The notes below the pieces were generated by a model that had not been told where the DNA came from, searched no databases, and saw nothing but the letters and a program-made list of their open reading frames with translations. Below, one piece after another: positions 8,878 to 32,606 of a stretch of 64,000 nucleotides of DNA (position 1 is the stretch's first letter; each line of letters begins with the position of its first letter). The position numbers and the translations under genes are program-made. This DNA comes from an uncultured virus (IMG/VR IMGVR_UViG_3300033233_000011) (lineage: Duplodnaviria > Heunggongvirae > Uroviricota > Caudoviricetes): the IMG/VR virus record IMGVR_UViG_3300033233_000011. One strand, given 5' to 3'.

Positions 8878-9429
8878 TCACGTGGCCCTCAGCGTGGCGT
8901 AGCGGACGCCGTCGCGCTGCAGCTCGGCGTAGACCGCCTCCTGCCGCAACTTGCCCGCGAGTGTCTCGGCGATCTTGCCGACGTTCTGCTCGAACTTCTG
9001 ATCGTTCTCGGCGCTCAGGCGCAGGATCACGACTTGCACGCTGTCCTCGGGGATGGTCTTGCCCTTCGACTTGCCGCGCGTGTACTTGTACAGGCCGCGC
9101 TGAAGCAGGAACGACGCGCCCGGGTCGCCGCCGATCCGCCGGAGCTGTGCGAGGCGCATCTTCTTCACGATCTTGAGCACGTCGTCGACCGAGTACGTCG
9201 GCACGCCGTCGACCGAGAGCCCCACGAAGATGCGCGCGGACAGGGCCGGGTCCGTGTCGCGAGTGACGGGGTTGCCCTGGCGGGTCGAGTGGCGAAGCGC
9301 GCTCACGTCGCCGATCTCGTAGACCTTGCCGTGCGGCTCGAAGGAGCAGTCCGGGTGGCGAAACGCGCGCAGGTCGACCTTGTAGGTGCCGCGCTTCAGG
9401 GGGTTCGAGAGACGGGTGAAGTCGGTCAT
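8878..9429 (-). CDS. Hypothetical protein with N-terminal RLSNPL tag
   Basis: Begins MTDFTRLSNPL; TACCAT -10-like element just upstream. Confidence 0.7.
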   Translation of the reverse strand: MTDFTRLSNPLKRGTYKVDLRAFRHPDCSFEPHGKVYEIGDVSALRHSTRQGNPVTRDTDPALSARIFVGLSVDGVPTYSVDDVLKIVKKMRLAQLRRIGGDPGASFLLQRGLYKYTRGKSKGKTIPEDSVQVVILRLSAENDQKFEQNVGKIAETLAGKLRQEAVYAELQRDGVRYATLRAT

Positions 9430-10705
9430 GGCGCGCTCGATGGTAGCAGGGGCCGGACGCGAGAGACGAACGACTCGACGATCTTCGCCGCGTTCTCCTC
9501 GTCGAAGTAGTATTGGTTCCACTTGCCGGAGTAGGGGTTCATGCCCTCGATGCCGAGGCTGTTCGCGCGCTCGATGTCGTCGAACCGGCAGAAGACCTGG
9601 CCGCCGTGACTGCCCGTAAATGACGGGCACGGGCTCATGCGCAGCGTGCCGGCCTTCGTCTCGATCGCGTGGCGGTGGTCGCCCTCGTACCAGGACTCGC
9701 ACGGCGTCGCGCCGAGCTGCCGGAACGCTACGAGCACGGCGGCCGTGAACGCAGCCTGGGCGCGCTCCCGCTGGCGAGGGCCGAGCTTTCGGGGACGGGG
9801 CTTCGATGCTGCGCCCGCACGGCTGGCGGGGCTCACGACCACACCAACACGACGCCGCCCAGCTCCCGGACGCGGTCGAAGATGGCGACGATGCGCGCCG
9901 CGATCCAGTCCCGGTCCGCGATGCTCTGCCAGTTGCGGGCGCGGTACTCGACGAGGAGAGTCGCGAGGTCGTTGTCGAACGCCGGCACGACGAAGTCGGC
10001 GCCGAAGTTGCCGACGAGCGACCCGTCCCACTCCCACAGCACCCGGCCGCCCTCGCGGGCGTTCACGTCGCCGAGCCAGGCGACGCCGTGGCGGTCGCGC
10101 AGCTCCGCGATGGCCGCGCGGCTGGCGTCGTTCAGGGCGCTGTCCGCTTCGGGGATGCAGCCGTCGCCCTCGCGGATGGCGCGGGCGACTTCGTTGGCGA
10201 GGTTCTGGGATGCGGTCATGGATTTCTCCTCGCTTCTACGTCGTAAAAACGCGCCCCGCCGTTTCCACCCGACCTCCAGCTCCGATACGTGAACGGCCGG
10301 CGGCAGCACCGGCACGTGGCGTTCTTCCAGCGCCGGCCCGTGACGCGGCCGGTCACGCAGTTGTGGCAACACGGACAGGTGACGGGCAAGGTCATGGCAG
10401 CACCACCCACGTCTCGCAGGCGTGCTCGTACGCCGCCGCGATCAGATCACGTACACGCTCCACCTCTGCCTCGTCGCCGTAGGCTGCGGTCAGCAGTTCG
10501 CCGCCGCGGCCGACTCGGTAGATCTGCGCGATCTCGGAGTGTCTGCCGGTGCGGCCGGGTCGCATCGTGATCGAGAGATCCTCGCCCTCGTGCTCCGTGA
10601 GCCAGTCGGTCGCGCGCTGACAGGCGTCCGCGTGCTCGTCGTCGCTGATGGCGTCCAGCGTGCCCCAGCAATCCGGGTACACCACGTCGACGTACTCGGC
10701 GGCGC

Positions 10706-10885
10706 TCACGACCGCTCCTCCGGCGCCCCGTGCTTCTTCAGAAAGCGCTGCACCCGGGCGCGCTCCTTCTCGCCCATCGCTGCCAGCTCGCGGTCGGGCA
10801 CGGCCCACGCCGAGAGCCAGCGCTGCTCGTAGACGCTCCAGTACGTGAGCGATCCGTCGCGGCGGAACTTGGTCTTGATGCTCAT
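10706..10885 (-). CDS. Small hypothetical protein
   Basis: ATG directly follows AAGGAGACCGACCA. Confidence 0.65.
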   Translation of the reverse strand: MSIKTKFRRDGSLTYWSVYEQRWLSAWAVPDRELAAMGEKERARVQRFLKKHGAPEERS

Positions 10886-10901
10886 TGGTCGGTCTCCTTT
10901 T

Positions 10902-11908: not shown

Positions 11909-12244
11909 TCAGTGCTTGCTCCAGGTCACGCCGTCATGCGTGTGGAGCCCAGCCGCCACGGCCCGCGCGTCGACCTTGCGGCCGGCGAGCTTCTCGGCCT
12001 TCGCCACGGCCTGGCGCAGCGCCCAGCTATTCGCGGCGGTCAGCGTCCGGTACGCGCACACGTCCGAGACGTCGCGCCGGTTGTCTCCGTCCCAGCCGTC
12101 GAACATGATGCCGCCCTGCGGGCCGACCTTCACGCGCGCGCGGCCGCTGTTGAGCGCGTCTTCGAGGAGCTTCAGGGCCGATTCGATCTCGGTCCGGCGC
12201 TCGGCCGGGGTCTGGTTCTTGCGGACGTAGGTGTCACAGGGCAT
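11909..12244 (-). CDS. Hypothetical protein near the AAA ATPase module
   Basis: MPCDTY start with AAGGA upstream; GC3-biased frame. Confidence 0.65.
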   Translation of the reverse strand: MPCDTYVRKNQTPAERRTEIESALKLLEDALNSGRARVKVGPQGGIMFDGWDGDNRRDVSDVCAYRTLTAANSWALRQAVAKAEKLAGRKVDARAVAAGLHTHDGVTWSKH

Positions 12245-12486
12245 CGGACAATTCCTTTTCCGAGACTTCTCGCCAAGCTCGCGGGCGGACCTGTTCGTAG
12301 ATGGCAACATGCGTGGCCCCCACTGCGTTCGCCTTTGCTGAACTGAGCGTGTTCGTCTCAGCGAGACATCGCCGTCCCTTGCCGTCGTCGACCACGACGG
12401 CGAAACGGTGGCCAAGGGCACCGATCCAGCGCAGCACTTCAGCGTCCGCGGCCGAGATGCCGGCGCCTTTCATCGTGCGATCCATC

Positions 12487-13212
12487 TCAGACCTCCAGCG
12501 CCCGCGCCGGCTCGGCGCTCTCGACCACACCCGCCCGCACTGGCTCCACGTCCAGGAACGCGAACCGGCTCATCTCGACCGCGGCGAGCTGGGTCTCCAG
12601 CCCCTTCGCGGTCTCGCCGTCCTTCGCCGCCTTGGTCAGCTCCCGGGCCGCCTTGCGAGCGGCCTCGATCCCGACCTGGACGCGCGCGGCGCTCGACTCG
12701 TCGAGCACGCCCGAGACCTGCTTGACCTTCGTCGCCGCCTCGCGGATCTCCTCGACGTCGCCGGCCTTGATCCCCTGCGCCATCCGGGCGAGTAGCCCCT
12801 CGATCTCGCTCGCGACGGCCTTGGCCGCCTCGGCTTCCGACTCGGCGATCCTGAGCTGCAAGACGAACAGCTCGACGCGCGTGGACTGCGCGCCCGCGTT
12901 GTGGACGGCGCAGAGCGTGCGCGCGTTCTCGACCGCTTCGTTCAGCTCGGGGATCCGAGCGGTCGGGCAGAGCAGCAACCGGCTCGCGTTGATGCACACC
13001 TTCTCGACGAGTCGCCGGGCCTCGCTGCGCGTGTTCGAGGCGCGCGTGAACTCGGCCGGGTCCGCGATCTCGCGCCGGGTCTCCCAGCTCGCGACGGCCG
13101 CGCCGCCTCCGTTGGTGTGCTCGACTTCCAGCTCCTTGCGGAAGTAGGCGACACCGCCCTTCACTGACGATTCCAGAATCACGATGACTCCGGGCTTCAA
13201 GATGGTCAACAT
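12487..13212 (-). CDS. Alpha-helical hypothetical protein downstream of the AAA ATPase
   Basis: 241 aa, start-associated sequence, coiled-coil character. Confidence 0.75.
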   Translation of the reverse strand: MLTILKPGVIVILESSVKGGVAYFRKELEVEHTNGGGAAVASWETRREIADPAEFTRASNTRSEARRLVEKVCINASRLLLCPTARIPELNEAVENARTLCAVHNAGAQSTRVELFVLQLRIAESEAEAAKAVASEIEGLLARMAQGIKAGDVEEIREAATKVKQVSGVLDESSAARVQVGIEAARKAARELTKAAKDGETAKGLETQLAAVEMSRFAFLDVEPVRAGVVESAEPARALEV

Positions 13213-13270
13213 TTGGTCGGTCTCCTTGCTTCGTGTGTTAGGTGAAACGTCCTACTCGGTCAATCTATTC

Positions 13271-14842
13271 TCACAAATCGAGCGCTCGCCCCGCGCCCGC
13301 GCCCTCGGCGGCCTCGGGCAGCGACGCCGGCCGCGCGCGGCCCTTGGCCCAGTCGCGGAGGCCCTGGATCTTCTCGGCCTGGGTCTTCGACGACGGGACG
13401 ACGCTCAGCGCGGAGGTGATGAGGTCGTCGATCGTCAGGTCGCGCTCTGCCTCGGTGAAGGCGTAGAAGAGCGCGTCCGGGACGAGCGCTGCGATCTCGG
13501 CGCCGGTGAAGCCGCGGGTGTGAGGTTCGAGGATCCCGAGGTCGCCGACCTGTTCGGGGTCGCGCCTGTAGAGGCGCAGCGACGCGGCTAGGATGTCCCG
13601 GCGCTCGCGCGCCGTGGGAAGATCGACGAAGAACGTCTCGTCGAACCGGCCCTTGCGCGTCAGCTCGGGCGGCAGGTAGCGCGTTTCGTTCGCGGTCGCG
13701 ATCGTGATGATCGATCCCGATCGATCCTGCATCCAGGTCAGGAACGTGCCGAGCATGTCCGACGAGACGCCGCCGTCGCCCTGTGGCCCGCTCGCGCCGG
13801 CGAGGGACTTCTCGATCTCGTCGAGGAAGAGAATGCAGGGCGCCACGGCCTCGACGACGGCGAGGGCCTTGCGGAAGCCGGCCTCGGATTCGCCGACGTA
13901 TTTGCTCTTCGTCGCGCCCATGTCGAGCCGGACGATCGGCAGTTGCAGCGCTGCGCCCGCGCACTTGGCGACGAGCGTCTTGCCGCAACCACTGATCCCG
14001 TACAGGAAGATCCCCTTCGGGGGCGGCAGGCCGAAAGTGCGAGCGCGGGGTGACAAGGCGGTCTTCATGCGCCGCAGGCAGCTCTTGACGTTGTCGAGCC
14101 CGCCGATCGCGTCGAACCCTCGCGGGTCCGGGTCGTAGATCGTCAGCCCCGAGGCCTGCGACACGATCCGCTTCTTCTCTCCCGAGACCTGCGCCGGGTC
14201 GATGCGCCGCACCGTGACCAGACTCTTGGCGTACGAGTTCCCCGCGCCCTGGCCCGTGAGCCCCGTCGCCGCGTCGATCGCCGCCTCGCGCCGGCCGTTC
14301 ACGAGGTCGCCCTTGACCGCGTCGCGCAGCGGGTTCCCGTCGCGATCTTTCTCGGCCAGGACGTCGACCGCGCGGTCGAGGATCGCCGCCAGCTCCTGCC
14401 GTTCGGGCAGGGGCCAGTCGATGACGGTCGCCAGGTCCGAAAGCTCCGGGGGGACTTTCGCCTCGGGCGTCAGCACGATGATGCTCCGCGCCTCGGTGCC
14501 GGGCGATCCTTGCAGGTCCCTCGCCAGGTTCTTGAGCTTGCGGATCGTCGGGTAGTCGAGGCAGGCGTGCAGGTCCCGGAGCACGTACACGGCGCGCGCC
14601 GTGCGCTCGCGGATCGTCGCCAGGATCCGCGCGGGGTCGCCGTTCGGGTCGATCACTTCGCCGCTCGCGTCGCAGAGGCCCTTGTCGCAGTCCCAGAAGA
14701 GCACCGGGTACCCGGCCGCTTTCGCGGCGGCCTTGATCTGGTCCTCGACGCGGGGCTCCTCGACGGAGACCGTCCAGACGAGCGTCACGCGGGAGCGCAG
14801 GAGCGCGGAGAGGTCGTCCCGGGCTTGGTCGTTCTTGGTCAT
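13271..14842 (-). CDS. AAA+ ATPase (Ycf46-like, with a degenerate N-terminal AAA domain)
   Basis: Walker A GISGCGKT, Walker B ILFLDEIEK, SKYVGESE, TAN...LPPELTRKGRFDE. Confidence 0.92.
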   Translation of the reverse strand: MTKNDQARDDLSALLRSRVTLVWTVSVEEPRVEDQIKAAAKAAGYPVLFWDCDKGLCDASGEVIDPNGDPARILATIRERTARAVYVLRDLHACLDYPTIRKLKNLARDLQGSPGTEARSIIVLTPEAKVPPELSDLATVIDWPLPERQELAAILDRAVDVLAEKDRDGNPLRDAVKGDLVNGRREAAIDAATGLTGQGAGNSYAKSLVTVRRIDPAQVSGEKKRIVSQASGLTIYDPDPRGFDAIGGLDNVKSCLRRMKTALSPRARTFGLPPPKGIFLYGISGCGKTLVAKCAGAALQLPIVRLDMGATKSKYVGESEAGFRKALAVVEAVAPCILFLDEIEKSLAGASGPQGDGGVSSDMLGTFLTWMQDRSGSIITIATANETRYLPPELTRKGRFDETFFVDLPTARERRDILAASLRLYRRDPEQVGDLGILEPHTRGFTGAEIAALVPDALFYAFTEAERDLTIDDLITSALSVVPSSKTQAEKIQGLRDWAKGRARPASLPEAAEGAGAGRALDL

Positions 14843-17800
14843 GGCTTCGTCTCCTCGAAGGCGAGCTTGACCTGTTCGAGCAGGGCCGCCTCGGACTCCT
14901 CGGCCGTGGCGAGCGCTTCGCGGAGTCTGTGCAGCGCTGTCTCTGCCGCGGTGACGGCGATGCGCGTGTCGGATGCAGCGCGTTGTGCGACGCGATGCAG
15001 AGCTTGAATGGCGGCGAAGTCGATGGTCATTTGGTCGGTCTCCCTGTCCCCCGTCGTTAGGTGAAACGTCCTAGCCCTGGTCCCCATTCCCGCGTTCCTG
15101 CCGGCGGTCGCGGTCCCGCTCGCCCGAGAGCACGTACGCCAGATCGGCCGGCGTCGCCTCGGTCACGCGCTCGCCCTCTACCAAGTACAGGCGCGGTTCC
15201 GGGCCGCCCGGTGTCCGGACCGTGACCACGCGCTCGCGGATCCGCGTCTCCGTCATGGTGCTCCGGTACTTGTCGGCCGAGATCACGTGCGTCCCGCACG
15301 TGTAGAGCAGCCAGCCGAACGCCGCGGGGCAGTCCGAAGAGCGGAGCATGTTGAGATCGTGGACGTGGAGGTCGGTCGCGAAACTCTGCGGCAGGCCGTG
15401 CTTCTTGGACTCGGCGCAGAGCGCCGCGTAGGTGCGATCGGCCGGGGTCTGGGGCTTCTTCTTGGGCATGGGTCAGGCTCCGATCTTCTGCGCGTCGTCG
15501 CGCACGTTGTAGCCGGCGATCCGGTTCCGCGCCGAGACGATGCGCTCGCACGCGATCCGCTCGGACAGGTACTCGGGGAGCCCCGCGAACGTCCGACAGT
15601 CACCGTCCCACCGATCGACGTACTTCGCGATCGTGTGCGGGCGCTGGCCCGGGTGACGGAACGTGATTACGACGATCCCACCGTCCGCGCGCTTCGCCCC
15701 GAAGAGCTGGGCGCGGTAGTGGTCTTCGCCGTCGATCCACCAGTCTTCGACGTGATCCGGCTTGTCGCCGTTCGCGACGTAGCCGAGCGCCAGCGATAGG
15801 ATGCCAGCCTCTTCACGGTTCGCGTTCGCGCGCTCGACGGCTTGGTCTCGGGTTTCGCGTTTCATGACTTCACCGCGTTCGGATCCTGCGGAGCCAGCAC
15901 GCCGATTTCCTGGAGCTGTTCGGCGGTCCCGACGTACCACTTGCCGCGGGGCGGAAAGATACTCCAGCCGAAGAGCAAGCCACGCTCGACGGCGAGCGCT
16001 CGCGCGGTTTCTTCGTTGTTGCACGAGAGCATCGGTCAGGCCTCCCACTTGATGAGCTTCAGGCTGTACGGCAGTCCCGCCAGGTGTTCGCGGCCCCAGA
16101 CGATAGCCTCTTCCTCGGTCGCGAACGCGCCGCGAGTGAGGGGATCGAACGCTCCGCCGCGCTCGGTCTCGGTCGGGTGCCACTCGGTCGCGAACGCGCT
16201 CGGCACGCTCGGGACCACGAGGGTCCAGTAGTCGTTTCCTTCTTTCAGGGGCATTGGTCGGTCTCCTTTTCGATCTTCTTACCGGCTCGGGTGCGTGGCA
16301 AGCCGCTTGCAACGCGCCCGAACCGGTTAGGGCTCGGGTCCTACCTCACTTCACCAGCGTCGCGATTGCCCTCAGTTTCTCGGCGCGCTCGCGTGCCGCT
16401 GCGCTGCGTGCGGTCGCGTTGCCGGAGAGCTGCGCATCCAGCGCCGCGTGCAACGCCTTGAGCGCGTCGCCGTCGCGATCGTACTTGACCAGATCACGCG
16501 CGGCCTCCTCCGCGGTGCTGTATTCGACCGCGGCCTCCCACGTGGTCGTAGACCCCTGCCAGCGGGACCAGCCGCCGCTGTACTTGAGCCACGCGATCCG
16601 GCCGTCCGTCAGCAGGAAGACGTCGGAGCCGTCGAACGCGCCAGAATTCGCGCGCGCGTCGCACCTGCCCGGGCCCACGGCGTCCGTATCGAGGTGGACC
16701 CCGCGCTCGGGTAGATGCGTGCCGGTCTCCACCTGATCGTAGTTCACGTCACCGAGGTGCGACTGGCGGCTGCTCACCTTGATCCGGCTCGCGAGCGCCC
16801 GCAGCGCGGGGCGAACCGCGTCGAGCGCGACCTGGAGCACTGCAGCGCGGGCCCCGCGCTCCTCGGTGACGGCCGCCGCCAGATCCTCGTGCTGCGCGGC
16901 GACGGCTGCCGCTTTTTCGGACAGATCGTTGATCGTTTCCATTGGACTACTGCTTTCTGCGGCTCCTCGCCGCTGTTTCGGCCACTCCTCGTGGCCTAGT
17001 GCCCGCTCGCGGAGCCATCCGCGAGAGCGCCGGGGGCCGTCCCGGCTCGGGCTTTCGATCATGCAGCGTGACGGGGGGCCTCCTTTGCTAGCGCGTTGAA
17101 GAGCGCGCCGATCTTCACGGTCTCGGCGCCGCACGCGAACATGAAGCGCTCGACGTCGAACCGGGGGTTCTCCTCGCGAAAGAACACGGCGAAGAGAGTC
17201 GCGGTGTTCTCGCGGCAGCTTGCCTTGGGAATCGCCGCGACGAGTCGCGCGGCGCGGACGAAGTCTTTCTTGGTACGCATTTGGTCGGTCTCCTTGTTTC
17301 GCGTTTCCGTTACTGCCGCGGAGCTACCTCCGGCGCCCTGCGGCAGGCCCAGACGTCGCTGTCCAGCGCGCCCGCGGCCTCCTCCGCGGCGATGATCTCG
17401 TCCAGGTGCGAGAGCAAGAAGTCACACGCGCCGTCCAGCTCTTCCAGCGTGAGACTCTGAATCAGCACGCCGTCTTCCTCGATGATGAGAGTAGCCATTT
17501 GGTCGGTCTCCTTCGGTCTCCGTTGCTGCCGTCGTGTCGTTAGGTGATACGTCCTACTGCGATCCCTCATTCCCCGGTCCGATCTTTTTTTCGATCGGGC
17601 CGGGACGCGAGGGCCTCACTCGGCCGCTTGCGCTACCTCCTCCGCTGGCGAGTCGCCGTCGATGCCGCGGAACGAGGCGAGCGCGGCGAGCGCCGCGGGC
17701 AGGTAGCAGGGCACGCCGCGAACCAGCGCCCAGCCGGCGCGCACGCGGCCCGTGGGTGAGAAGGCGTCGCGGAACGCGGGCGCGGTCGCGAAGCGTGCCC

Positions 17801-21329: not shown

Positions 21330-21361
21330 CTGCTCAAGCATCCTGATCTACACCTACCCGC

Positions 21362-22369: not shown

Positions 22370-22777
22370 GTGAACTACGAGCGCTTCTCGAACCCGCTCA
22401 CCGAGAAGTACCCGCTCGCCGGTGCGAGAGTCGACGGCCGGATCGTCGGCAGCGACGTTCCGAACACCTCTTCGATCGGCGCGAGCCTCGACAGCTACGA
22501 AGTCCTGCGCGGCATCCGCGAGGTCCCGCTCTCGGCGTTCACGCAACTCGGTCCGCTGCGGCCGCGCTACTCGGTGAGCGAGGAGCGCCGGACGAAGGAT
22601 CTGACGGAAGACATCCGTTGGTCCGGTCGAGTCGACCCGCTCATCGTTGTCGAGGACGCCGAGGGGCCGTACGTGCTCGAAGGAGGGCACCGCTTCGACG
22701 CCCTGCGCCGGCTCGGCGCTCGGGCGCTGCCGGCGCTGGTCGTGCTCGACCTCGAAAGCCTCGCGGGTGCGGCGTGA
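22370..22777 (+). CDS. ParB/sulfiredoxin N-terminal-like domain protein with N-terminal RFSNPL tag
   Basis: DI..SGRVDPLIV....YVLEGGHRFDALRRLG; begins (M)NYERFSNPL. Confidence 0.75.
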   Translation: MNYERFSNPLTEKYPLAGARVDGRIVGSDVPNTSSIGASLDSYEVLRGIREVPLSAFTQLGPLRPRYSVSEERRTKDLTEDIRWSGRVDPLIVVEDAEGPYVLEGGHRFDALRRLGARALPALVVLDLESLAGAA

Positions 22778-23732: not shown

Positions 23733-24218
23733 GTGAACTACGAGCGTTTCTCGAACCCGCTCGTAGTTCGGCGCACCTCGAACGCCGGCCGCTCGACGCT
23801 CGACCGCGCCGTCGCGCACTACGGGCTCACGGACTTCTGGCCGTACGCCGGGTACATCCTGCCCGACGGATCGATGCTCGACTTCTCAGAGGGATCCGGC
23901 AGACGGACGCAGGACCACCACAACGTCGAGCAGTTCGTGCGCGTCGGGGAACGCGAGTCCCGGCACGACGCGATGATCAAGTTCATGCGCGTGACGGGTG
24001 CGATCCGCTTCGGCCCCGAGGGCATGACGTTCATGCTCGTCGAGCGACCGACGGGCGACCAGATCCGGCGCATGACCGAGATCGTGCGCGAGTCCGACAA
24101 GCCGCCCGTGCTCGAACTCCGGGACGCCCACGGCGAGGTCGAGTGGCAGCGGGAGTACGAGGACTGGAACCAGCGTGAGTTCGCGCGCGACCTGCGCGCC
24201 TACGGCCCCGGGGAATGA
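23733..24218 (+). CDS. Hypothetical protein with N-terminal RFSNPL tag
   Basis: MNYERFSNPL; contains AGYILPDGSMLDFS...DH. Confidence 0.75.
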   Translation: MNYERFSNPLVVRRTSNAGRSTLDRAVAHYGLTDFWPYAGYILPDGSMLDFSEGSGRRTQDHHNVEQFVRVGERESRHDAMIKFMRVTGAIRFGPEGMTFMLVERPTGDQIRRMTEIVRESDKPPVLELRDAHGEVEWQREYEDWNQREFARDLRAYGPGE

Positions 24219-25077
24219 CTGATGAGGCAGGAGCGCTCTTCCCCCCGCACTTCCCTCTCGCGCCAGGACGAGGACGAGCGCCCGGCGGCCGCGCGCTTCA
24301 CCGGCAGGGGGATCTGCCCCGACTGCGGGAGCCTGCCGCACCGCGTGCGCGGCCGGCGGTGCGGGCGCTGTGGGCTCCGGAAGGGGCAGGAGCGCGGCGC
24401 CGAGGAGCAGGCGCGGACGTGGGCGAAGAAGTCGCACCAGTGGGACTCGTTTTACTGATGCCGGACCGCGCCGTGATGCTCCCGATGCGCGCGTTCGCGG
24501 GCGTGAACGTGCAAATCATCAAGTGGAGCGCGCCCTACGACCAGGACTGCCCCGTCTGCGGCGCGCGCGTGATCGACGACGGCAAGACGACCCGCGACGT
24601 GGAGCTGGCGAAGGACGGGTGGCGGTGCCTGCCGTGCGCCCCGCCGATCGACCTGGGGTTGTGATGAACCGTCGCGCCTTCTTCGCTTTCTACGTGGGCG
24701 AGGCCCTCGGTCAGCTCGACCAAGCGCCGCGGGTGTCGATCGTCGGCCAGGGTCCGACGCGCCCACGCTGGGTCGCACTGTTCGAGTGGGCCGCGACGTT
24801 CGGGTGGTCGTGCGCGGCTTGACCGATGCGGAGTGGACCGCGCTGCGACCGATCGGCGAGCCTGGCGAGTACGCGCACGATGCGATCGTGCAGGCGCTCG
24901 TCGATTGCGGCCGTGCGCGGTGGGAGCGGGAGCCCGACGGGGGCTGCGTGCTCGTACCCACCGAGCTGGGCATGCTCGCGCTTCGTTTGGCCGAGATGGG
25001 CGCTCGCTAGGGGCCTAGAAAGCTGCGCCCGCACGCGCGGCTTGGCTGTTCGGCCGGGCTCGGGTAGGCTCCGGGGC

Positions 25078-25653
25078 GTGGACTACGGGCGCTTCTCGAA
25101 TCCGCACGGCGGCTCCGCGCGGACCTCGAACCAGCAGGCCGGCATGCCCTGGGGCGAGGGCTACGTCATCATCCCTACGTTCGGCTGGAAGCAGATCGGC
25201 GGGGACGTGAGCGCTGACAAGTACGGCGGCACGATCGCGCGGGCGGACGGGTCGAGCATCGAGCTTTTGAAGATCCAGCCGGTGCGCGAGTACGTCGGCG
25301 AAGGGGAAGCCCGGGACGTCGGCTACCCGTTCTGGACGCGCGAGGCGAGCTTCGACGCTGCCGACCTCGACCCGAACAAGAAGGAAGTGCAGAGCGCGAT
25401 GCGGTCCGTCGGGATCAGCAAGTCCGACCTCGCTGACATGACGCCGGAGGTGCGCGCGGTCGCGCTCGCCGAGGCGATGCTCGACTACGGCCACGCCGAG
25501 GAGGGTCCCGCGGGCTGGTCCAAGGACCTGCCGAACTACGACGTCGAGTGGTCGTACGGCGGCAAGCGACAGAAGATGCGCGAGTACCTCGCCGAGGAGG
25601 ACGACGAGTTCCGGCGCGAGGTGCTCGGCGAAGAGGACGAGGACGAGGAATGA
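25078..25653 (+). CDS. Acidic hypothetical protein with N-terminal RFSNPH tag
   Basis: (M)DYGRFSNPHGG; TTGGCT-17-TAGGCT promoter 7 nt upstream. Confidence 0.75.
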   Translation: MDYGRFSNPHGGSARTSNQQAGMPWGEGYVIIPTFGWKQIGGDVSADKYGGTIARADGSSIELLKIQPVREYVGEGEARDVGYPFWTREASFDAADLDPNKKEVQSAMRSVGISKSDLADMTPEVRAVALAEAMLDYGHAEEGPAGWSKDLPNYDVEWSYGGKRQKMREYLAEEDDEFRREVLGEEDEDEE

Positions 25654-25877
25654 ACGCCCTCTCCGGCCTCGCCCAGTCCCGCAAGGTCTGGTACGTGTCC
25701 GCGGTCCTCGCCGCCGGCCAGGCGATGGTACAGACCCACCAGCTCCCAGCGACGTGGTGGTGGGCCGGATCCTGCGCGCTCGCGGCCGTGTACGTCGTCG
25801 CGCACGCGGCGCAGGAGCGGGGCAAGCCGCCGCCGGCACCGACGCCCCCGCCCGCACCGCCGGCGAGCGGAGGTTGA
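25650..25877 (+). CDS. Holin-like small membrane protein
   Basis: SRKVW start motif and two hydrophobic segments. Confidence 0.45.
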   Translation: MNALSGLAQSRKVWYVSAVLAAGQAMVQTHQLPATWWWAGSCALAAVYVVAHAAQERGKPPPAPTPPPAPPASGG

Positions 25878-25879
25878 AC

Positions 25880-26155
25880 GTGGACTACGAGCGGTTCTCA
25901 AATCCGATCAGCGCCCGGAAGCGGCTGAACAAGGAGACCGCGCAAGCACTCGCGACGGCAAAGCGCGAAGGCTGGCGAATCAAGTGGCTCGAACCCGGTG
26001 AAAAGCCCGGACGGAACCTGGTGCGCGCCTGGGTGCAGACGCGCGGCGGCGAGACGCTCACGACTCTCACCAGTGGCAGTCCCATCCCGCGCTCGGAGAG
26101 GAAGAGCTACGAGCACGACCTGTTCTGGGAGGCGTGGATGCGTTCGCGCCGGTGA
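25880..26155 (+). CDS. Hypothetical protein with N-terminal RFSNP tag
   Basis: (M)DYERFSNPI; GGAGG RBS. Confidence 0.7.
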   Translation: MDYERFSNPISARKRLNKETAQALATAKREGWRIKWLEPGEKPGRNLVRAWVQTRGGETLTTLTSGSPIPRSERKSYEHDLFWEAWMRSRR

Positions 26156-26399
26156 CCCGTCGCCCGCCCGAGCACCTCGAAGGGGTGAGGGGTGAGCACC
26201 TGTGGCGCTTCTCCGACGGCAACGCCGCGTGGCACTTGCTCCGTCCGTCCGACTTCGACCGCTCCTTCGTCCGCCGGTCGCTGCGCCCCGTCCCGCAGAG
26301 CCCGCTGCGCGCGCTCGCCGACAAGATCGGCGACTTCTTCCTCGCGGGCGTCGTCCTCGCCGTCGCGCTAGCGTTCATGCTGAAGGCGTGCTCCTGAAA

Positions 26400-26621
26400 A
26401 TGTTCGACCTCTACGACGGCTACTTCCAGCCGCAGATCGTCATCTACACCCTCGAAGGTTGCCCGGCCTGCACGCAGGCGAAGGACTACTTCCGGAACCG
26501 CGGCGTCGCGTTCACCGTCCGGGACGGCGCGGGGCTCGGCGAGGTCCCGGTCGTCGAGGTCGGCGGCGAGCGGACGGTCGGCTTCGACCCGCGGTGGATC
26601 GACGCGAAGCTGGGGCGCTAG
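26400..26621 (+). CDS. Glutaredoxin/NrdH-like protein with N-terminal MFDLYDGY tag
   Basis: IYTLEGCPAC.QAK.YF, VPVVEVGG...VGFD. Confidence 0.8.
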   Translation: MFDLYDGYFQPQIVIYTLEGCPACTQAKDYFRNRGVAFTVRDGAGLGEVPVVEVGGERTVGFDPRWIDAKLGR

Positions 26622-26897
26622 GTGTTCGACCTCTACGACGGCTACTTCGAGGAGGAGTCCCGCTCCTTCCTCGGCCAGCCCGCGCTGCCGAGCGGCGACT
26701 CCGCGCTGCGCCTGGTCCAGGGCGACACGAGCGCCGCGTCGACCGTGCTCCTGCACTGGGGCCTGCGGACCGTCCTCATCGCCTCGGGCCTGTACCTGGC
26801 GGGGATGCGCGAGAAGGTGTGGCTCGGCGCGTTCGGGGGATCGACCGCGATCGAGCTGTTCGTGCTCGGCTGGGCGGCGACGCACCGGGACGCTTGA
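26622..26897 (+). CDS. Small membrane protein with MFDLYDGY tag
   Basis: Same first 9 codons as the previous gene; two hydrophobic stretches. Confidence 0.7.
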   Translation: MFDLYDGYFEEESRSFLGQPALPSGDSALRLVQGDTSAASTVLLHWGLRTVLIASGLYLAGMREKVWLGAFGGSTAIELFVLGWAATHRDA

Positions 26898-27182
26898 AGC
26901 GGGACCTCGATCCGTGGGAGGCTCTGTCGTGGCTCTCGTGGGTGCTCGTCCTCGCGGTCCTGGTGGTCTGGGTCTGGCGGCGCTGCTCGCCGTAGCGTGC
27001 GGGCCGCAGAGGCCCGCGTGCGCGCCGGAGAGTGAACTGGGGAAGCTGGAAGCGGCGTTCTTGGCCGAGGCGCTCGTCGATTGCAAGGGGTTCACGTTCG
27101 ACACGTGTCCCGCGCTGCCGAAACTCCGCGCCGAGTATCGGGTGAAGGTCGAGGCGTGGCGGGACTGCGTGGGAGAGAAGCC

Positions 27183-27455
27183 GTGAGCATCTGGCAGCGG
27201 CTGTCGAATCCTCTGGCTCCGTCAGAAGGCGACGACTACGACGACGTGGAGGGATCTGACCGCGCAGTTTTCGGACAGTACAAGGTACACGTTGACGTCC
27301 ACCAGAGCAGGGCGGTTCCCAGCTACGTCTACGGCTCGATGTACCGCAGCGACGCGATCAGGGTTGCAAAGGCACACAGAGGTCGAGGCAAAACCGTGAC
27401 CGTCATCGACGAAGAAAGCCCCGATGTCGTGTGGCAGAGCGAGAACGGAAGATGA
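27183..27455 (+). CDS. Hypothetical protein with N-terminal RLSNPL tag
   Basis: (M)SIWQRLSNPL. Confidence 0.65.
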   Translation: MSIWQRLSNPLAPSEGDDYDDVEGSDRAVFGQYKVHVDVHQSRAVPSYVYGSMYRSDAIRVAKAHRGRGKTVTVIDEESPDVVWQSENGR

Positions 27456-27999
27456 TCCTCGACGACCTCATCCGGCTCCTGCGCTCCGTCCCGCCCGAGG
27501 CCTACGACGCGCTCGGCCGCCTCTTCACCAGCGTCGCGAGCGCCCCGGACCCCGTCGAGGCCGCGCGGCGGGCCGCGGAGGCCATCGCGGCCGAAGAGGG
27601 CGCGGACGAGATCCTGAAGAAGGCGCTCGGGCGGAGCGCGCCGTGAGCCACCTCGACAACGGTACGGTCCAGGTGCTGCGAGATGTGGGAGAGCAGGCGA
27701 CGGCTATTCTCATCGAGACCAGCCGGATCGTGCAGGGCCTGTCGGCGGGGCAGATCCTCGATCAGAACCGCGGGCAGGCGGCGTTCTATTTCGGCGAGGC
27801 GCTGTGGGCGCTCACCGGCGGGGCGCCCTGGCACCTCGTCGAGCGCCGGCTCCTGCAGGTCGCGGCGCTCTGGAGGCAGGCGTCGTGACCAGCGCCGAGC
27901 TTCACCGATGGGCCCGGCCGATCGAACTCGCCGCGCTCGCTGCCAACGGTCTCGTCGACGAACCCATCAGCGTCGCGAAGTCCCTGCACGGCGTTTGGA

Positions 28000-28503
28000 T
28001 CAGGCGCGCGGTCTAGGGCCTCGCTGCCGTTTTGTGCGGGGACCGCCGACGTGCGGCCAGATCCGACCGGAGCAGATCGCTGAGACGGTCACGGGTGTCA
28101 CCGCAAACTCCGCCGCTAGATCCATTCCGTACTCGCCGTTGGCGTACCTCTGACGAATCGCGAGCACGTCGACCTCTTTCAATCGAGCCCTCGGACAACC
28201 TTCGCCTCGGTAGTTCTTCCTGCCCTTGGCGAAGGAGTCCTGCATGTTCTCTGCGTTAGTGCCCAAGAACAGGTGCGCTGGGTTGCAGCACGGCGGATTG
28301 TCGCAACGATGCAGCACGTGCAGATCGCCGGGGTGTGCCCCGGTGCTGATCCACCAGGCAACACGCGGGCTCGTGTGTCCGTGGCCCTCGAACCAGAAGA
28401 GCCCGTAGCCCTTCGGGTTGCGGTGAGCTTTCCAGGGCCAGCACTCGTCGTCGCCACGGCGCTCGACGCGCGACCAAAAAACTGCGACTCTTGCTTCGTC
28501 CAC
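28000..28503 (-). CDS. HNH homing endonuclease with C-terminal HTH
   Basis: CWPW...GYG, VLHRCDNPPCCNPAHLFLGTNAENMQD; antisense to its neighbours. Confidence 0.92.
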   Translation of the reverse strand: MDEARVAVFWSRVERRGDDECWPWKAHRNPKGYGLFWFEGHGHTSPRVAWWISTGAHPGDLHVLHRCDNPPCCNPAHLFLGTNAENMQDSFAKGRKNYRGEGCPRARLKEVDVLAIRQRYANGEYGMDLAAEFAVTPVTVSAICSGRIWPHVGGPRTKRQRGPRPRA

Positions 28504-28575
28504 GGCGGTACCTCGCTACTGGGCCACGGCCGCGGGTGCTCGTACACCGCGCGGCCAACTTTCTCGGAGCCTAGC

Positions 28576-29448
28576 ATGACCCCCGACCGGATCCGCCTGA
28601 AAGCCGCAGCCTACGCGACCGCGTGGGAGCGCCTCTTCGGCTCGCCGCCGTCGACCCACAACACCGCGCTCGGGCTCTCGGTTGCGCTGGCCGAGACGAA
28701 AGCGGGTGATTCCTGGATCGGACCCGACGGCGTGCTCGACACGGCGGACGACCCGCGAAATTGGGGGGCATCGACGCTGCGCGCCCTGAACGCGGCCGAG
28801 CTGGCCGCCGTCGAGGCCGCCGGCATCAAGCCGACCGTCGGACCGGAGCGCGAGGAGCGCGCTCGGGCGGCGAAGACTGCGATCGTCCTCGCGGGTCTAC
28901 CGCTGCCGCAGGGGGAGATCCACTGCGACAGCCGGCCGACCTCGCACGGTTCGGTCGCGTATTTTACCTTCTTCCGTACGAGCACGACCGACGTCGACGG
29001 CGCCGAGTACTTCCTGCGGATCCTCGCCGGCACGCCGGACCGACCGAAGCCGGCGAGGGTGATCCTGGAGAGCGGCTCCGGCACCGAGCACGACCTCGCG
29101 GCGGCGATGTACTCGGCCCATTATTTTCTCGGCCGCCATGACCCAGCGCAGCCCGGCGGCGCGCAGAGGAACATCGACGACTACATCTCGTTCATCCGAC
29201 CGTGGGCGGCGGCCGTGAGGGCCGCGCTCATCGGCGAGGACGACACGATCCCGCCGCCCCCGCACCCGGCCGTGCTCGCGGAGGGGTCGCGCGGGCCGGC
29301 GGTGCTCCGGTTGCAGCAGAAGATCATGGTGCACGACGGGAGCTTCGGACCCGTGACCACTGCTGCGCTCAAGGTGAAGCAGCGCCTGCTCGGCCTGCCG
29401 GAGACCGGCGTGCTCGACGAGGCGACGAAGAAGAAGCTCTGCCTCTAG
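28576..29448 (+). CDS. Putative endolysin: lysozyme/glucosaminidase-like region plus peptidoglycan-binding domain
   Basis: C-terminal L.EGSRGPAVLRLQ...DGSFGPVTTAALK..Q...GL..TG..D..T is PG_binding_1-like; the catalytic call is tentative. Confidence 0.65.
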   Translation: MTPDRIRLKAAAYATAWERLFGSPPSTHNTALGLSVALAETKAGDSWIGPDGVLDTADDPRNWGASTLRALNAAELAAVEAAGIKPTVGPEREERARAAKTAIVLAGLPLPQGEIHCDSRPTSHGSVAYFTFFRTSTTDVDGAEYFLRILAGTPDRPKPARVILESGSGTEHDLAAAMYSAHYFLGRHDPAQPGGAQRNIDDYISFIRPWAAAVRAALIGEDDTIPPPPHPAVLAEGSRGPAVLRLQQKIMVHDGSFGPVTTAALKVKQRLLGLPETGVLDEATKKKLCL

Positions 29449-29807
29449 GAGATCCCCGTGAAGCCCAAGAAGAAATGCCCCCGTCCTCGCGTCATCGATC
29501 TCATGGCCTACGTGCGTCGCGCCCCCTTCCGTGTCCAGGTCAAGTGGAAGCCGCAGCCGGACGACTCGGACCAGCAGATCCTGCGCGCGGCGCGTGCGCG
29601 GCCGGCGTTCTCCATCCGCAAACTCGTGCTCTTCAACTGCAAGACACGCGACGAAGCGGAGAAGATCAAGATCCGCGTCGAGGCCGCCCTGCCGCACGCG
29701 CACGTGCGCGTCGTGGACCGCGTCCGGGCCATCGAGAAGCACCGGACCTGGGCGAAGAAGCGTCGCGTCGCCCGGCGCGTGAAGAAGATCAAGCTGCTCG
29801 TCGCGTG

Positions 29808-29960
29808 ATGGACTTCGCCCGCTTCTCGAACCCGCTGCAGGCGAACCAGGGCATCGGCCTCGTCCAGCAGCAGCGCCCCGTCGTCCCGAAGCAGCAGCGC
29901 AAGCCGCGAGTCAAGACATCGCGGACCGGAGCGACGCCTACTCGCGAGCGCTTGGTGTAG
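29808..29960 (+). pseudogene. Short ORF resembling the 5' end of the kinase-like gene, upstream of TnpB
   Basis: MDFARFSNPLQANQGIGLVQ vs MNFFQRFSNPLAQNQGIALVQ at 31138. Confidence 0.6.
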
Positions 29961-29972
29961 TAGGATAGATAC

Positions 29973-31070
29973 GTGCTCCGCAGCTACCGCTATCCGCTCC
30001 GGCCTACGGTGGCGCAAGAAGCGAAGCTCGATCAGTGGCGCATCGCCTGCTGCGACCTCTACAACGGCGCCCTCGAAGAGCGACGCGAAACGTGGCGCCG
30101 GCAACGCTACTGCGTGACCTTCTACGACCAGCAGCGTGAACTCGTCGAGCTGCGGCATTCGGTCGCGGAGTGGGAGTCTGTTCCCAGCGACATCGCGCGC
30201 AGTGCATTGCGCCGTCTCGATCGCAGCTTCAAGGACTTCCGTCGCCGTCTTCGGCGCGGAGAAGATCCCGGCCCGCCTCGTTACCGCGGTGTCGATCACT
30301 ACAAGTCCTTCAGTCTCGGAGATCGTCACCGAATCGTCGAGAACCGCCTGCACGTTCCGAAGCTCGGCTGGGTGAAGCTACACCTGTACCGGCCGCTCGG
30401 CGGCCCGGTGCGCGACGTGGTCCTGAAGAAGGAGGCCGGCGGTTGGTTCGCCTACGTCGTCTGCGACATCGGCGCCGCGCCGCCGAAGGGCGTCGTGCAT
30501 CCGAACAAGATCGTCGGCATCGACGTGGGGCTCAACGTGCTGGCCGTGCTATCGGACGGTGGCGCCATTGAAAACCCGAGGTACATGAAGAAAAGCGAGG
30601 TGCTGCTCGCACGACGCCAGCAAGCGTACCGCCGCAAGCGTCCTGGATCACGAAGCCACGCGCGAGCCGTGAACCTCGTAGCGAGGATGCGGCAACACAT
30701 CGGCGATCAGCGGCTCGACTACGCCCGCAAAACCGCCAAGCAACTCATCAACAACTACGACTTGATCGTGCATGAAGACTTGCAGATCGCCCGCATGGTG
30801 CGGGGGAACTTCGCGAAGTCCATCCACGACGCCGGCTGGGGAATCCTCTTGCGGTGCATCGCTTCCAAAGCGGAAGAAGCTGGGAAGCACGTCATCGCAG
30901 TAGACCCCCGCGGTACCAGTCAGCGGTGCAGCATGTGCGGGAAGGCGGTGGCGAAGGACCTCTCGGTCCGCGTCCACGCTTGCCCTAACTGCGGCTACAC
31001 CGCTGACAGGGACCTCAACGCCGCTCGGAACATTTTGGCGCTCGGTAGGAGCGTGGTGGCGGTCGCATGA
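29973..31070 (+). CDS. tnpB: RNA-guided endonuclease TnpB (IS200/IS605 family), no adjacent TnpA
   Basis: YRYPLRPT HTH, RuvC GIDVG / HEDL / DRDLNAARNI, zinc finger CSMCG..CPNCG. Confidence 0.95.
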   Translation: MLRSYRYPLRPTVAQEAKLDQWRIACCDLYNGALEERRETWRRQRYCVTFYDQQRELVELRHSVAEWESVPSDIARSALRRLDRSFKDFRRRLRRGEDPGPPRYRGVDHYKSFSLGDRHRIVENRLHVPKLGWVKLHLYRPLGGPVRDVVLKKEAGGWFAYVVCDIGAAPPKGVVHPNKIVGIDVGLNVLAVLSDGGAIENPRYMKKSEVLLARRQQAYRRKRPGSRSHARAVNLVARMRQHIGDQRLDYARKTAKQLINNYDLIVHEDLQIARMVRGNFAKSIHDAGWGILLRCIASKAEEAGKHVIAVDPRGTSQRCSMCGKAVAKDLSVRVHACPNCGYTADRDLNAARNILALGRSVVAVA

Positions 31071-31137
31071 CCGCGCCGAAGACCAAGAGCAAGGTTGCTA
31101 CCGCACTGGGGATGCGTTTCGTCTGGGCGCTGACGCC

Positions 31138-32048
31138 ATGAACTTCTTTCAGCGCTTTTCAAATCCGCTAGCCCAGAACCAGGGCATCGCCCTCGTGCAG
31201 CGACCGCCACGCGAGCCAAGGATCCGCCGTCCTCGGATCAAGCACTGGGCTCAAGCGATTGCAGATCGCTCTGATGCCTACGCAAAAGCTCTGAACGTTC
31301 CACTCGGAGAAATTCTGGGCTGTGGGCACTTCGGCTGCGTGTTCGATTCCACGCCGCCGTGGGTCGTCAAGTTCAGCCTCGACCCGAACGAGGGGCCGAT
31401 CTGGCAGCGGATCCTCGGGCTGCTCGAAGAAGAGTCGTACGGGCAGGGCGGCCTCACGCGCGTCAAGCTCCTGACGCGCATCGATCCCGGCATCAAGTCT
31501 GGGAGCCGGACGAAGAAGCTCTACGCGGTCGTGCGCGAGGCCGTGGCGCCGGCGTTCGTGATGGGGCGCGGCGGCAACACGTACACGCTCTCGCCGTACA
31601 CGGTCCGTCGGCTGGGACTGAACCCCGACCCGACGCTCGGGTGGCACTACGAGCACTACTCGCGCTCGGTCGTCACGGCGGACGGCGGCGAGGCGCACAC
31701 GCCTATCGTGGAAGAGTTCGCCGAGAACGTCCGGGCCATTCAGGTGTACCGAGACGAGGCGCACGACTACCACCGCGGCGACAAGGACACGAGCCGGATC
31801 GAGCGCGCCGTCAACCACCTGCGCGGCTCGACCGGCGGCGCGCTCGGCGAGACGCTCCAGATGCTGCTCTCGAACGACGTCGTGCTCGGCGACGTGCACC
31901 TCTTCAACGTCGGCTGGCGCCTGTACCGGAGCGCGCGGGGTTCTCGGACGAGGACGAGACGCTCGTGGTGTTTGACCCAGGTCACACGCCGACGCGGAAG
32001 AACGTGCCGATCGGCACGACGCTCGTCTCGAACCCGCGGCGGTGCTGA
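31138..32048 (+). CDS. Protein-kinase-like (ePK/APH fold) protein with SNP tags; apparent -1 frameshift near 31925-31940
   Basis: LGCGHFGCVF, VVK and DVHLFNVG in one frame; VVFDPG and the C-terminus in the other frame. Confidence 0.65.
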
Positions 32049-32606
32049 ATGGACTGGTTGCGCCGTCTCTCGAATCCGCTCGCCACGACCCAGGAACCGT
32101 GGGACGTGGCCCGCGAGCGATTGCTCGCGCTGGTGGAGGCGCCGGACGATCCGAGCCCGCAGGCCGTCGCGTCGGCGTTGGAACCGCTCGGACTCGGTGA
32201 CGCGCTCGTGAGCCACGAGGCGATGCGTGTGCTCTCGTTGCTCGGTCACAGGGGATCCGCGACGACGCTCCTGCGCGCCTCGGCTCTGCCTCGTTCTGTC
32301 CCGACGCTCTACGACGCGCGCTCTCTGATCACCGCCGTGCGTCGCCAGCGCGCCGAGAAGGCGGGCGCGGGGCGTACGCGCGCCGCGCTGAAGCGCAGGC
32401 TTGCCGTGCTCTCCGAGGATGATCGGCGGAGCCTCGACTACGCACGGAGCCGCGAGCGCGAGCTGGTGGAGAGGGCGCGCGCGTTCGAGGCGCTCGCGAA
32501 AGAAGGTCACTCGCCGGCGTGGGTTGCTCGAAGCTGGCGCGTACAGGCGCAGCAAGCGACCCGTGAGCGCGAGGTTCTGGAGCAGAGGCTGGCGGGCGTG
32601 CTGTGA
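32049..32606 (+). CDS. Helical hypothetical protein with N-terminal RLSNPL tag
   Basis: MDWLRRLSNPL. Confidence 0.7.
   Translation: MDWLRRLSNPLATTQEPWDVARERLLALVEAPDDPSPQAVASALEPLGLGDALVSHEAMRVLSLLGHRGSATTLLRASALPRSVPTLYDARSLITAVRRQRAEKAGAGRTRAALKRRLAVLSEDDRRSLDYARSRERELVERARAFEALAKEGHSPAWVARSWRVQAQQATREREVLEQRLAGVL

Follow-up and report, generated by a model that had tools for sequence, protein, structure and literature searches.

The closest described counterparts of the element considered here are peptides that target proteins to phage capsids. The T4 capsid-targeting sequence (CTS) is an N-terminal propeptide of 10-20 residues found on IPI-III and Alt (PMC7411985), and the signal of P1 DarB lies within residues 6-10, the first 30 residues being sufficient (PMC9024508). 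In the accounts cited, both of these published capsid-targeting peptides are N-terminal (PMC7411985, PMC9024508), and a C-terminal propeptide of the SPN3US protease (gp245) has been proposed to target that enzyme to the prohead (PMC7411985). Here we report that a 64-kb stretch of DNA from an uncultured Caudoviricetes virus (IMG/VR record IMGVR_UViG_3300033233_000011; hereafter the window), which is part of a contig of 119,384 bp, encodes a short peptide with the core [FL]SNP, called the tag below, at one or the other end of at least 16 proteins. We consider it likely that this peptide is a docking tag that acts at the peptide level. What appears to be new is that one tag is used at both ends, that it has been copied and then kept, and that it stems from the tail of a domain associated with proteases.

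The window has a G+C content of 68%, and its genes are short, tightly packed and frequently overlapping. Gene calling, which relied on third-position G+C, yielded 128 predicted proteins. The six-frame translation contains 16 matches to [FL]SNP, for which about 0.2-1 would be expected: a first-order Markov control averaged 1.06 matches and never exceeded 5 in 200 runs, and when the residues of the 128 proteins were shuffled 2000 times the average was 0.17 and the highest count 3. Of eight permuted motifs, seven count 0-1, and the remaining one, SNP[FL], counts 8 since it is contained in the FSNPL tags. All 16 copies lie no more than 10 residues from a protein terminus (9 N-terminal and 7 C-terminal), and no internal copy is found among the six-frame matches. 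Residues within 12 of an end make up 15% of the total, which gives P of about 1e-13 for 16 of 16 being terminal. A sequence-only reading of this DNA had listed nine N-terminal peptides, and each is confirmed at its start, although the list covered only 9 of the 16 copies; equal frequency at internal positions, which that reading named as grounds for giving up the idea, is not what the distribution shows.

The tag carriers thus number 16 of 128 predicted proteins, or about 1 in 8. They are designated N1-N9 and C1-C7 according to the end that bears the tag, and lengths are given in amino acids (aa).

N1, 8878..9429, minus strand: 183 aa, beginning MTDFTRLSNPL; tag at 9397-9420; ATG overlaps the preceding stop.
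N2, 22370..22777, plus strand: 135 aa, with a ParB-N/sulfiredoxin-like body; tag at 22376-22399.
N3, 23733..24218, plus strand: 161 aa, unknown body; tag at 23739-23762; GTGA overlap with the preceding stop.
N4, 25078..25653, plus strand: 191 aa, with a conserved phage domain and an acidic tail; tag at 25084-25107.
N5, 25880..26155, plus strand: 91 aa; tag at 25886-25909 (TTC TCA AAT CCG); GGAGG 7 nucleotides (nt) before the GTG.
N6, 27183..27455, plus strand: 90 aa; tag at 27192-27215 (CTG TCG AAT CCT); GTGA overlap.
N7, 29808..29960, plus strand: 50 aa; tag at 29814-29837; just upstream of a TnpB element.
N8, 31138..32048, plus strand: about 300 aa; tag at 31147-31170; apparent -1 frame break near 31930-31960.
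N9, 32049..32606, plus strand: 185 aa; tag at 32058-32081; ATG immediately after the stop at 32046-32048.
C1, 48255..48908, minus strand: 217 aa, ending ..RTSNPYALFSNPMDY before the stop; tag at 48264-48287.
C2, 48912..49322, minus strand: 136 aa (126 aa if the start is at 49292), ending ..NPEGNPYARFSNPHGGE; tag at 48924-48947.
C3, 49319..49663, minus strand: 114 aa, ending ..VKNPYAMFSNPHGGLS; tag at 49334-49357.
C4, 49660..50091, minus strand: 143 aa, with a glycine-zipper membrane segment and then ..MTNPKTFSNPWGAR; tag at 49672-49695.
C5, 50084..50356, minus strand: 90 aa, ending ..NNPTRFSNPFGCNCG; tag at 50102-50125; ATG at 50356 overlaps the C6 stop.
C6, 50353..50499, minus strand: 48 aa, ending ..VPAGFSNPMGGP; tag at 50365-50388.
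C7, 50496..50893, minus strand: ending ..HHNPMSPTFFSNPHRSP (..FFSNPHRSP); tag at 50508-50531; apparent -1 frame break near 50660-50690.

The N-terminal carriers begin with ATG at 9429 (minus strand), 29808, 31138 and 32049, and with GTG at 22370, 23733, 25078, 25880 and 27183. These starts are plausible because five of them overlap or abut the preceding stop codon (N1 as ATGA, N3 and N6 as GTGA, N7 as TGATG, N9 as TGAATG) and because N5 has its GGAGG 7 nt upstream. In all nine N-tags the [FL] residue is encoded by codon 6 or 7, and the seven C-tags stand 7-10 residues ahead of the stop in minus-strand genes that form an unbroken overlapping chain from C7 to C1 (50893-48255). The frame breaks in N8 and C7 are without a slippery heptamer or homopolymer, and in both genes the frame with coding-type third-position G+C beyond the break ends in an SNP tail. 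For N8 this shifted frame ends ..TLVSNPRRC, with the SNP at 32028-32036, and the gene probably ends at 32048 rather than 32211. Assembly error, mutation and a programmed shift are all candidate causes of the breaks.

The N- and C-terminal forms align as one core of eight residues, [YFW]-x-x-[FL]-S-N-P-hydrophobic, as in YERFSNPL (N2, N3), YGRFSNPH (N4), YARFSNPH (C2) and YALFSNPM (C1). In the N-terminal form M-[DN] precedes the core, and in the C-terminal form there is usually a second N-P ahead of the core, with 3-6 residues behind it. An all-against-all blastp comparison of the 128 proteins links the tagged proteins only via the tag region, with the exception of N7 and N8. The first ~21 codons of N7 duplicate the start of N8, from which N7 is separated by the TnpB gene at 29973-31070, and N7 looks like a cut-off duplicate of that start.

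Both tagged ends that were modeled with AlphaFold 2 (AF2) have low predicted local distance difference test (pLDDT) values. Residues 1-30 of N4 score 50-61, and 10-residue block means for residues 31-180 are 94-98; in the 126-aa form of C2 the tail scores 52-59, with block means of 88-98 for residues 61-110 of the domain that precedes it. The tagged ends of N4 and C2 are therefore probably flexible in these models. No hydrophobic stretch follows any of the nine N-tags. This, together with the seven C-terminal copies and the low-confidence ends of the two models, bears out the earlier suggestion that the tag is not a signal peptide. Other candidates that were considered and set aside, as failing to suit sequence and two-ended position together, are 2A-like NPGP skipping, NPTH-type Asn-Pro self-cleavage, precursors of ribosomally synthesized and post-translationally modified peptides, and the twin-arginine or type VII signals.

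The tag is comparable to the T4 CTS in that a short terminal peptide of about 10 residues is common to unrelated proteins of one phage (PMC7411985, PMC9024508), and the position of the N-tags agrees with that of the CTS, within the first 10-20 residues. It has no sequence likeness to the CTS. Moreover, the CTS as described in the cited accounts is only N-terminal and binds the scaffold core, whereas the tag here is also C-terminal in seven carriers. The [FL]SNP core of the N-tags, which starts at residue 6 or 7, is similar in position to the P1 DarB signal at residues 6-10, and a short N-terminal piece of DarB loads a foreign protein (PMC9024508). However, DarB is one protein, its signal is not known from that account at a C-terminus, and its packaging is proven experimentally, whereas for the tag described here packaging is a proposal.

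The invariant serine of the tag, which has Arg at -2 in 11 of 16 copies and Pro at +2, might instead be a site of modification, phosphorylated or glycosylated by phage enzymes. R-x-S-x-P is present in all nine N-tags and in two of the seven C-tags, and the internal SNPs of C1-C4 (RTSNP, RSSNP and RRSNP) conform to it as well. The window also contains genes for three glycosyltransferases, for methyltransferases and for a dual-specificity phosphatase-like protein (47176-47670) that scores below the Pfam cut-off at E 7e-6. Nevertheless, no kinase was confirmed: the kinase-like protein that the sequence-only reading had listed among the carriers found no backing in N8, for which Pfam and PDB sequence searches returned nothing. 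Modification can occur anywhere along a chain, yet all 16 copies are terminal, and at least one of the internal SNPs, that of C2, merely begins a domain of the protein (domain B, below). We regard a modification site as highly unlikely.

Variation among the copies points to the peptide as the conserved unit. Each of the 16 copies lies on the coding strand, and all are read in the same frame. Compared with TTCTCGAACCCG they show 15 base differences in all, confined to positions 1, 3, 6, 9 and 12; 12 are synonymous and three exchange F and L. Because all of these differences are synonymous or F/L, the peptide is under selection, so that the synonymous codon variation noted earlier is real and the argument drawn from it stands. 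Codon usage also carries a trace of how the tags arose. Serine is encoded by TCR in 16 of 16 tags, compared with 42% genome-wide, half of the Ser codons there being AGC or TCC; this indicates that the tags spread by copying rather than by independent origin. The rare codons AAT and TCA (6% and 3% genome-wide) occur in 5 and 2 of the nine N-tags, respectively, and in none of the seven C-tags, and the presence of such A/T-leaning codons in N-tags only fits their being at true 5' ends. All seven C-tags read TTCTCGAACCC(G/C) in near-identical DNA, and N2 and N4 also have in common the 21 nt upstream of their starts. The tags thus appear to have been copied as DNA from one ancestral stretch and afterwards held constant as peptide.

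Two of the carrier bodies have relatives that are widespread in uncultured phages. The N4 family comprises 86 proteins, of which only the window protein and P0002 (73% identical, beginning MSRFSNPGAFANPM..) have the tag; the other 84 are without it and start at the conserved domain or bear different extensions. In the C1 family (87 proteins), [FLIM]SNP occurs within the last 14 residues only in the window protein. The sister protein P0089, which is 81% identical to C1, ends in ..GNPAARFSRVLNPWSRS, a related but interrupted NP tail that keeps RFS and NPW with three residues between them, which breaks the 12-mer. Relatives of N2 in three IMG/VR loci (L152, L155, L156) have a different N-terminus and lack the tag. 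The comparison with untagged homologs that the sequence-only reading had suggested therefore comes out in favor of tag acquisition for three bodies (N4, C1 and N2), and the only close sister phage that was found keeps the tag. Many N4 relatives (P0004-P0078; loci L144, L150-L152, L155, L159) have RRxQxxLPG[IF][EP] just before the conserved domain, in some at the N-terminus and in others inside a linker; RRxQxxLPG[IF]EP was considered as an alternative tag and dropped, as it is an internal linker in three loci.

Pattern searches for [MV][DN][YF]xRFSNP beyond the window did not reveal another tagged phage. In IMG/VR DNA the pattern gave one stretch, in a record of 43% G+C, with six loose matches in short non-coding frames, and it was judged a chance hit in view of these further matches. 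The 54 stretches from JGI metagenomes have one match each and include no tagged start of a related phage; 16 of them belong to one conserved family in which the motif is internal. In GTDB genomes 75 stretches have one match each, as judged from the table, and none is a tagged relative. The pattern NPYxxxSNPWxY gave three IMG/VR stretches in low-GC records, all short frames of 16-19 codons, which we ascribe to chance. None of 120 TnpB relatives has a terminal copy of the tag, and literature searches with motif letter strings (RFSNP, FSNPL and the like) returned no description of this peptide among the matches listed.

Sharing of gene ends is common in this genome. An N-terminal peptide MFDLYDGY is encoded at 26400-26423 and 26622-26645 (plus strand) and at 54273-54296 and 53670-53693 (minus strand) in four unrelated genes, one of them for a glutaredoxin, by 21-24 bases that are identical except for one synonymous change. 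This peptide may be a further tag, either for addressing or for binding a hub. The minus-strand genes at 41409-41888 and 43074-45059 have the N-terminal stretch MP[IL]FP.G.G.G.. in common, and those at 50908-52209 and 52196-52705 (minus strand) share M/V-[PA]-LD.WPS.PG..R.Q..L.AV.

Given that the tags evidently spread as DNA, the conserved unit could be the nucleic acid itself, serving close to translation starts as an operator or enhancer, or acting as a short stretch of homology that drives the shuffling of cassettes, with the peptides as by-products. The near-identical TTCTCGAACCC(G/C) of the seven C-tags ends 11-18 nt ahead of the next start codon, just 5' of a G-rich Shine-Dalgarno stretch; four MFDLYDGY genes share 21-24 identical bases; and two tyrosine recombinases and two TnpB elements are present in the window. 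However, a DNA element would not account for 16 of 16 copies being in one frame despite differing stop/start arrangements, nor for the restriction of 15 of 15 differences to synonymous or F/L positions. Every N-tag comes after its own start codon, and none is followed by another. The octamer TCGAACCC occurs 17 times, 14 of them as in-frame S-N-P on the coding strand, and the three others are about what base composition would give by chance (~2). The sister protein P0089 retains the peptide pieces RFS and NPW, although the three residues between them interrupt the 12-mer. Furthermore, the spacing between C-tags and starts follows from the tails of 3-6 residues and the overlapping stops and starts, and the constant 11-nt spacing in particular is explained by tails of 3-4 residues with ATGA or TGATG overlaps. 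For these reasons, we consider a nucleic acid element very improbable.

Shared ends might also be functionless hitch-hikers, left by genes that were captured behind or before an existing start or stop module and in which the shared codons are tolerated. N2 and N4 share an upstream leader besides the tag, N7 repeats ~21 codons of the N8 start beside an insertion sequence element, and the further neighboring genes named above have N-terminal stretches in common. Against this, the 16 copies have 0 non-conservative changes and 12 synonymous ones. The sister phage retains the tag at 73-81% identity, and the same tail is present on proteins from other metagenomes, as described next. We judge this explanation to be quite improbable.

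The C-terminal tag is native to a family of proteins related to C2. This carrier consists of a small domain A, a linker RTSNP, a hitherto undescribed 55-residue domain B (48957-49127) and the tail. Domain B (~55 residues, NPxRPPKxWMRxC..DPxAVCGxxWYHKMS..KRAA.RRE, with two conserved Cys) is modeled by AF2 as three helices; it has no Pfam, PHROG or INPHARED match, and the C2 model is without a fold match in BFVD or PDB at E up to 0.001. An exhaustive profile search gave 232 relatives, and the counts that follow come from the best 150 of these. The domain B pattern fits 110 of the 150, and in 54 of the 110 an N-P follows within 60 residues. Three other clusters at 50% identity share an FSNP-type tail, with the motif 7-8 residues from the end as in the window: P0332 (..NPYALISNPWSY, ending ..RRSNPYALISNPWSY), P0305 (..NPYELLSNPWHY, ending ..RRNPYELLSNPWHY) and P0296 (..GFFSNPNKGY). 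P0345 ends in ..NPYGYIPNPW, and P0301 and P0330 have a similar motif (FFSSPL, LLQNPL) ahead of a membrane helix. Other relatives have different hydrophobic tails, namely ..NP..AWA[KR]VFG, ..NPSFVLGA[FL] and ..[DH]Pxx[LF]F[IL][LF] at their ends. In P0297, the N-terminal domain of C3 is fused to domain B. Taken together, these tails show that the C-terminal form pre-dates this phage as a native part of domain B proteins and was here moved to other bodies and to N-termini.

Domain B is also the only link between the tag and the phage head. An IMG/VR scan with a domain B alignment gave 21 loci (L162-L182), from which 19 distinct open reading frames (ORFs) were analyzed. Pfam Peptidase_S78 is present in seven of the 19 and PHROG head-maturation protease families in 11, for a union of 12, and domain B is consistently C-terminal to the protease in these ORFs; elsewhere it is found alone or ahead of a membrane segment. 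This arrangement resembles that of the prohead proteases of SPN3US (gp245) and HK97 (gp4), for which a C-terminal part has been proposed as the carrier into the prohead (PMC7411985). The placement of a terminal peptide on a flexible end (9 N-terminal and 7 C-terminal copies; pLDDT 50-61 and 52-59 in the two models) is also like that of the protease C-terminal region and of encapsulin cargo-loading peptides. The latter work at either terminus via a flexible linker and have a consensus unlike FSNP. Neither domain B nor an FSNP tail is described in these protease and encapsulin systems.

Because domain B sits on head-maturation proteases, and because of the precedents of T4, P1 and the prohead proteases, we rank the prohead first among possible partners. 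A tag on a flexible extension at either end would dock all carriers to one shared partner, which in this proposal would be the assembling prohead (its scaffold or core, or the inner face of its shell). The carriers would enter the capsid and then be delivered with the DNA. We hold this capsid-loading role as a plausible but still tentative assignment.

Several observations weigh against loading into the prohead. No capsid, portal, scaffold, terminase or head-maturation protease gene was recognized by Pfam and PHROGs among the 109 window proteins searched, whereas the T4 CTS carriers named in the cited source are head proteins. The neighbors of the N-tagged genes are an integrase, lysis-type genes and small unknown genes, and not a head module. 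A shared protease-type cleavage motif behind the nine N-tags was not seen on inspection by eye, whereas the T4 CTS is described as being cut off at a defined site by the prohead protease. One of the carriers, C4, is a membrane protein, and 16 carriers among 128 proteins exceed the four T4 CTS proteins that are named in the cited sources. Among the 150 closest domain B relatives, the 49 longest ones (200 aa or more) include only one with Peptidase_S78 (P0422), and other close relatives bear RadC or DUF5661, or a membrane segment behind domain B. With such varied neighbors, domain B is a promiscuous module, and the link to the head comes from its more distant relatives. Predicting a complex of domain B (residues 56-112) with the C1 tail (176-217) gave a score of 0.01 and no answer, and so speaks neither for nor against the proposal. 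Finally, the analysis covers 64 kb of the 119,384-bp contig.

The same docking behavior could be directed at another hub and so gather regulators and enzymes at a single place in the infected cell. In the host, this hub might be RNA polymerase, the sliding clamp, or a ring formed by Clp or another chaperone; in the phage, it might be a protein outside the head. Clamp-binding motifs function at either terminus, and these motifs, the gp45-binding tails of T4/RB69 and ClpX degrons are all short peptides on flexible termini, as the tag is, by which many unrelated proteins attach to a single ring-shaped partner. The nature of some carriers suits this explanation. The ParB-like domain proposed earlier among the carriers is supported for N2 by Pfam ParB_N (26.0 bits, cut-off 26.3) and by ParB chains in PDB (E 5e-5), and C1, to judge by the appearance of its sequence, may bind DNA. 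Beyond N2, N4, C1 and C4 the carriers have no useful family matches; N1 is without a Pfam or PHROG match, and the N4 model has no fold match in BFVD or PDB at E up to 0.001. The N-tagged genes lie outside any structural module, the varied hydrophobic tails of domain B relatives look like lineage-specific plugs for a co-evolving partner, and the existence of MFDLYDGY on four other genes indicates that this phage uses more than one tag. On the other hand, the clamp consensus QL[SD]LF or QLxLxL is not matched, as the tag is without Gln and has Asn where the second Leu is expected. No clamp or other hub protein was recognized among the 109 proteins, and it would not be explained why domain B goes with proteases in 12 of 19 ORFs. 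We therefore see docking to a hub other than the head as unlikely, though as deserving of attention.

One protein in the window invites a related explanation. The minus-strand gene at 13271-14842 encodes a Cdc48/VCP-like single-AAA ATPase with a 240-residue N-terminal region (Pfam AAA E 6e-26), whose best PDB matches are Cdc48/VCP/VAT (E 1e-54). Its nearest named relatives are in cluster O mycobacteriophages, with 43% identity to Corndog gp96, and downstream of it (12487-13212 and 11909-12244) lie members of PHROG families of unknown function (phrog_11021 and phrog_11784). An AAA+ unfoldase, either this ATPase or one of the host (Clp, Lon or a proteasome ATPase), might recognize the tag, as a terminal degron or otherwise, which would allow the carriers to be removed or remodeled at a set time. 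The 16 tags are all at termini taken to be unstructured, where unfoldases engage their substrates, and terminal degrons of ClpXP are established in the cited account (PMC10638403). However, relatives of the ATPase in six IMG/VR loci are not accompanied by terminal FSNP runs, motif counts in four whole records are not above control, and the ATPase is also present in cluster O mycobacteriophages. It has no protease partner beside it, and its end, ..GRALDL, is not of the proteasome-docking type. Just as the clamp consensus does not fit, the tag is not of the ssrA type, and neither a clamp nor a protease partner was recognized. A literature search for phage unfoldases with degrons found nothing relevant. 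A degron function is consequently improbable in our view.

If the prohead is the partner after all, a broader proposal can be made, namely that of a two-way address code in which an eight-residue peptide from a prohead-associated family loads at least 16 unrelated enzymes, regulators and small proteins from either end. This proposal is doubtful at present, and it would have several consequences. Perhaps about 30 carriers would be spread over the 119-kb genome, and a high-GC sediment phage not of the T4 type would inject a large ready-made set of proteins that could be read from its sequence. Domain B would be a module for docking to the prohead that is widespread among phages. Should the tag be an address label of any kind, the proteins sent to one place, which include ParB-like, orphan and membrane proteins, can be listed from sequence. 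An eight-residue tag usable from either end would be handy for loading foreign proteins, a use to which the T4 and P1 signals are already suited, and the combination of domain B with several classes of hydrophobic tail suggests that a more general docking system may await description. Tags that were moved as DNA and kept as peptide also illustrate how new genes can be enlisted in a pathway that a phage already has.

The window is present in one DNA sequencing run, from a sediment metagenome that is probably its source, and no RNA sequencing run containing it is listed. An exact search of IMG/VR with 40 bases from the end of the window gave no match. INPHARED gave no DNA match to 20000-34000 and no protein match to the 647-aa, 661-aa or 433-aa window proteins or to C2, and no tRNA genes or Rfam families were found in the window. 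The same Pfam and PHROG annotation of 109 proteins yielded two tyrosine integrases (recombinases), two TnpB elements, an M15/VanY endolysin-type peptidase, a peptidoglycan-binding protein, a glutaredoxin, HNH nucleases, a Mom-like protein, the Cdc48/VCP-like AAA ATPase and a cluster of glycosyl- and methyltransferases (54.8-61.2 kb). The product of 42034-43077 has a ConA-like fold and is probably a tail fiber. The two TnpB genes (IS605 OrfB-type; 29973-31070, plus strand, and 45110-46210, minus strand) are 64% identical to each other, and their closest relatives are merely 62% identical.

Glycosyltransferases (GT2, GT1), a sugar C-methyltransferase and an FkbM-type methyltransferase are encoded at 54857-61184 and 38073-39872 (both minus strand). 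In cluster O and other mycobacteriophages, the C-termini of capsid and tail-tube proteins are glycosylated by such enzymes. A conserved leader, ..AAGGAGACCGACCAAATG on the gene strand, precedes four minus-strand genes (13203-13272, 15021-15091, 17271-17304 and 17489-17574), and in three of the four it is preceded upstream by the 18-mer TAGGACGTTTCACCTAAC (gene strand); leader and 18-mer together are likely a shared promoter or operator plus a ribosome-binding module. The gene at 33497-36001 (minus strand) encodes an 834-residue protein without a family match that consists largely of 60-nt (20-residue) repeats at 34150-35380 and may be a fiber or surface protein. Lastly, the start of the window contains a 145-nt direct repeat (1-145 and 225-369, 99% identical) that duplicates the initial 43 codons of a small gene.

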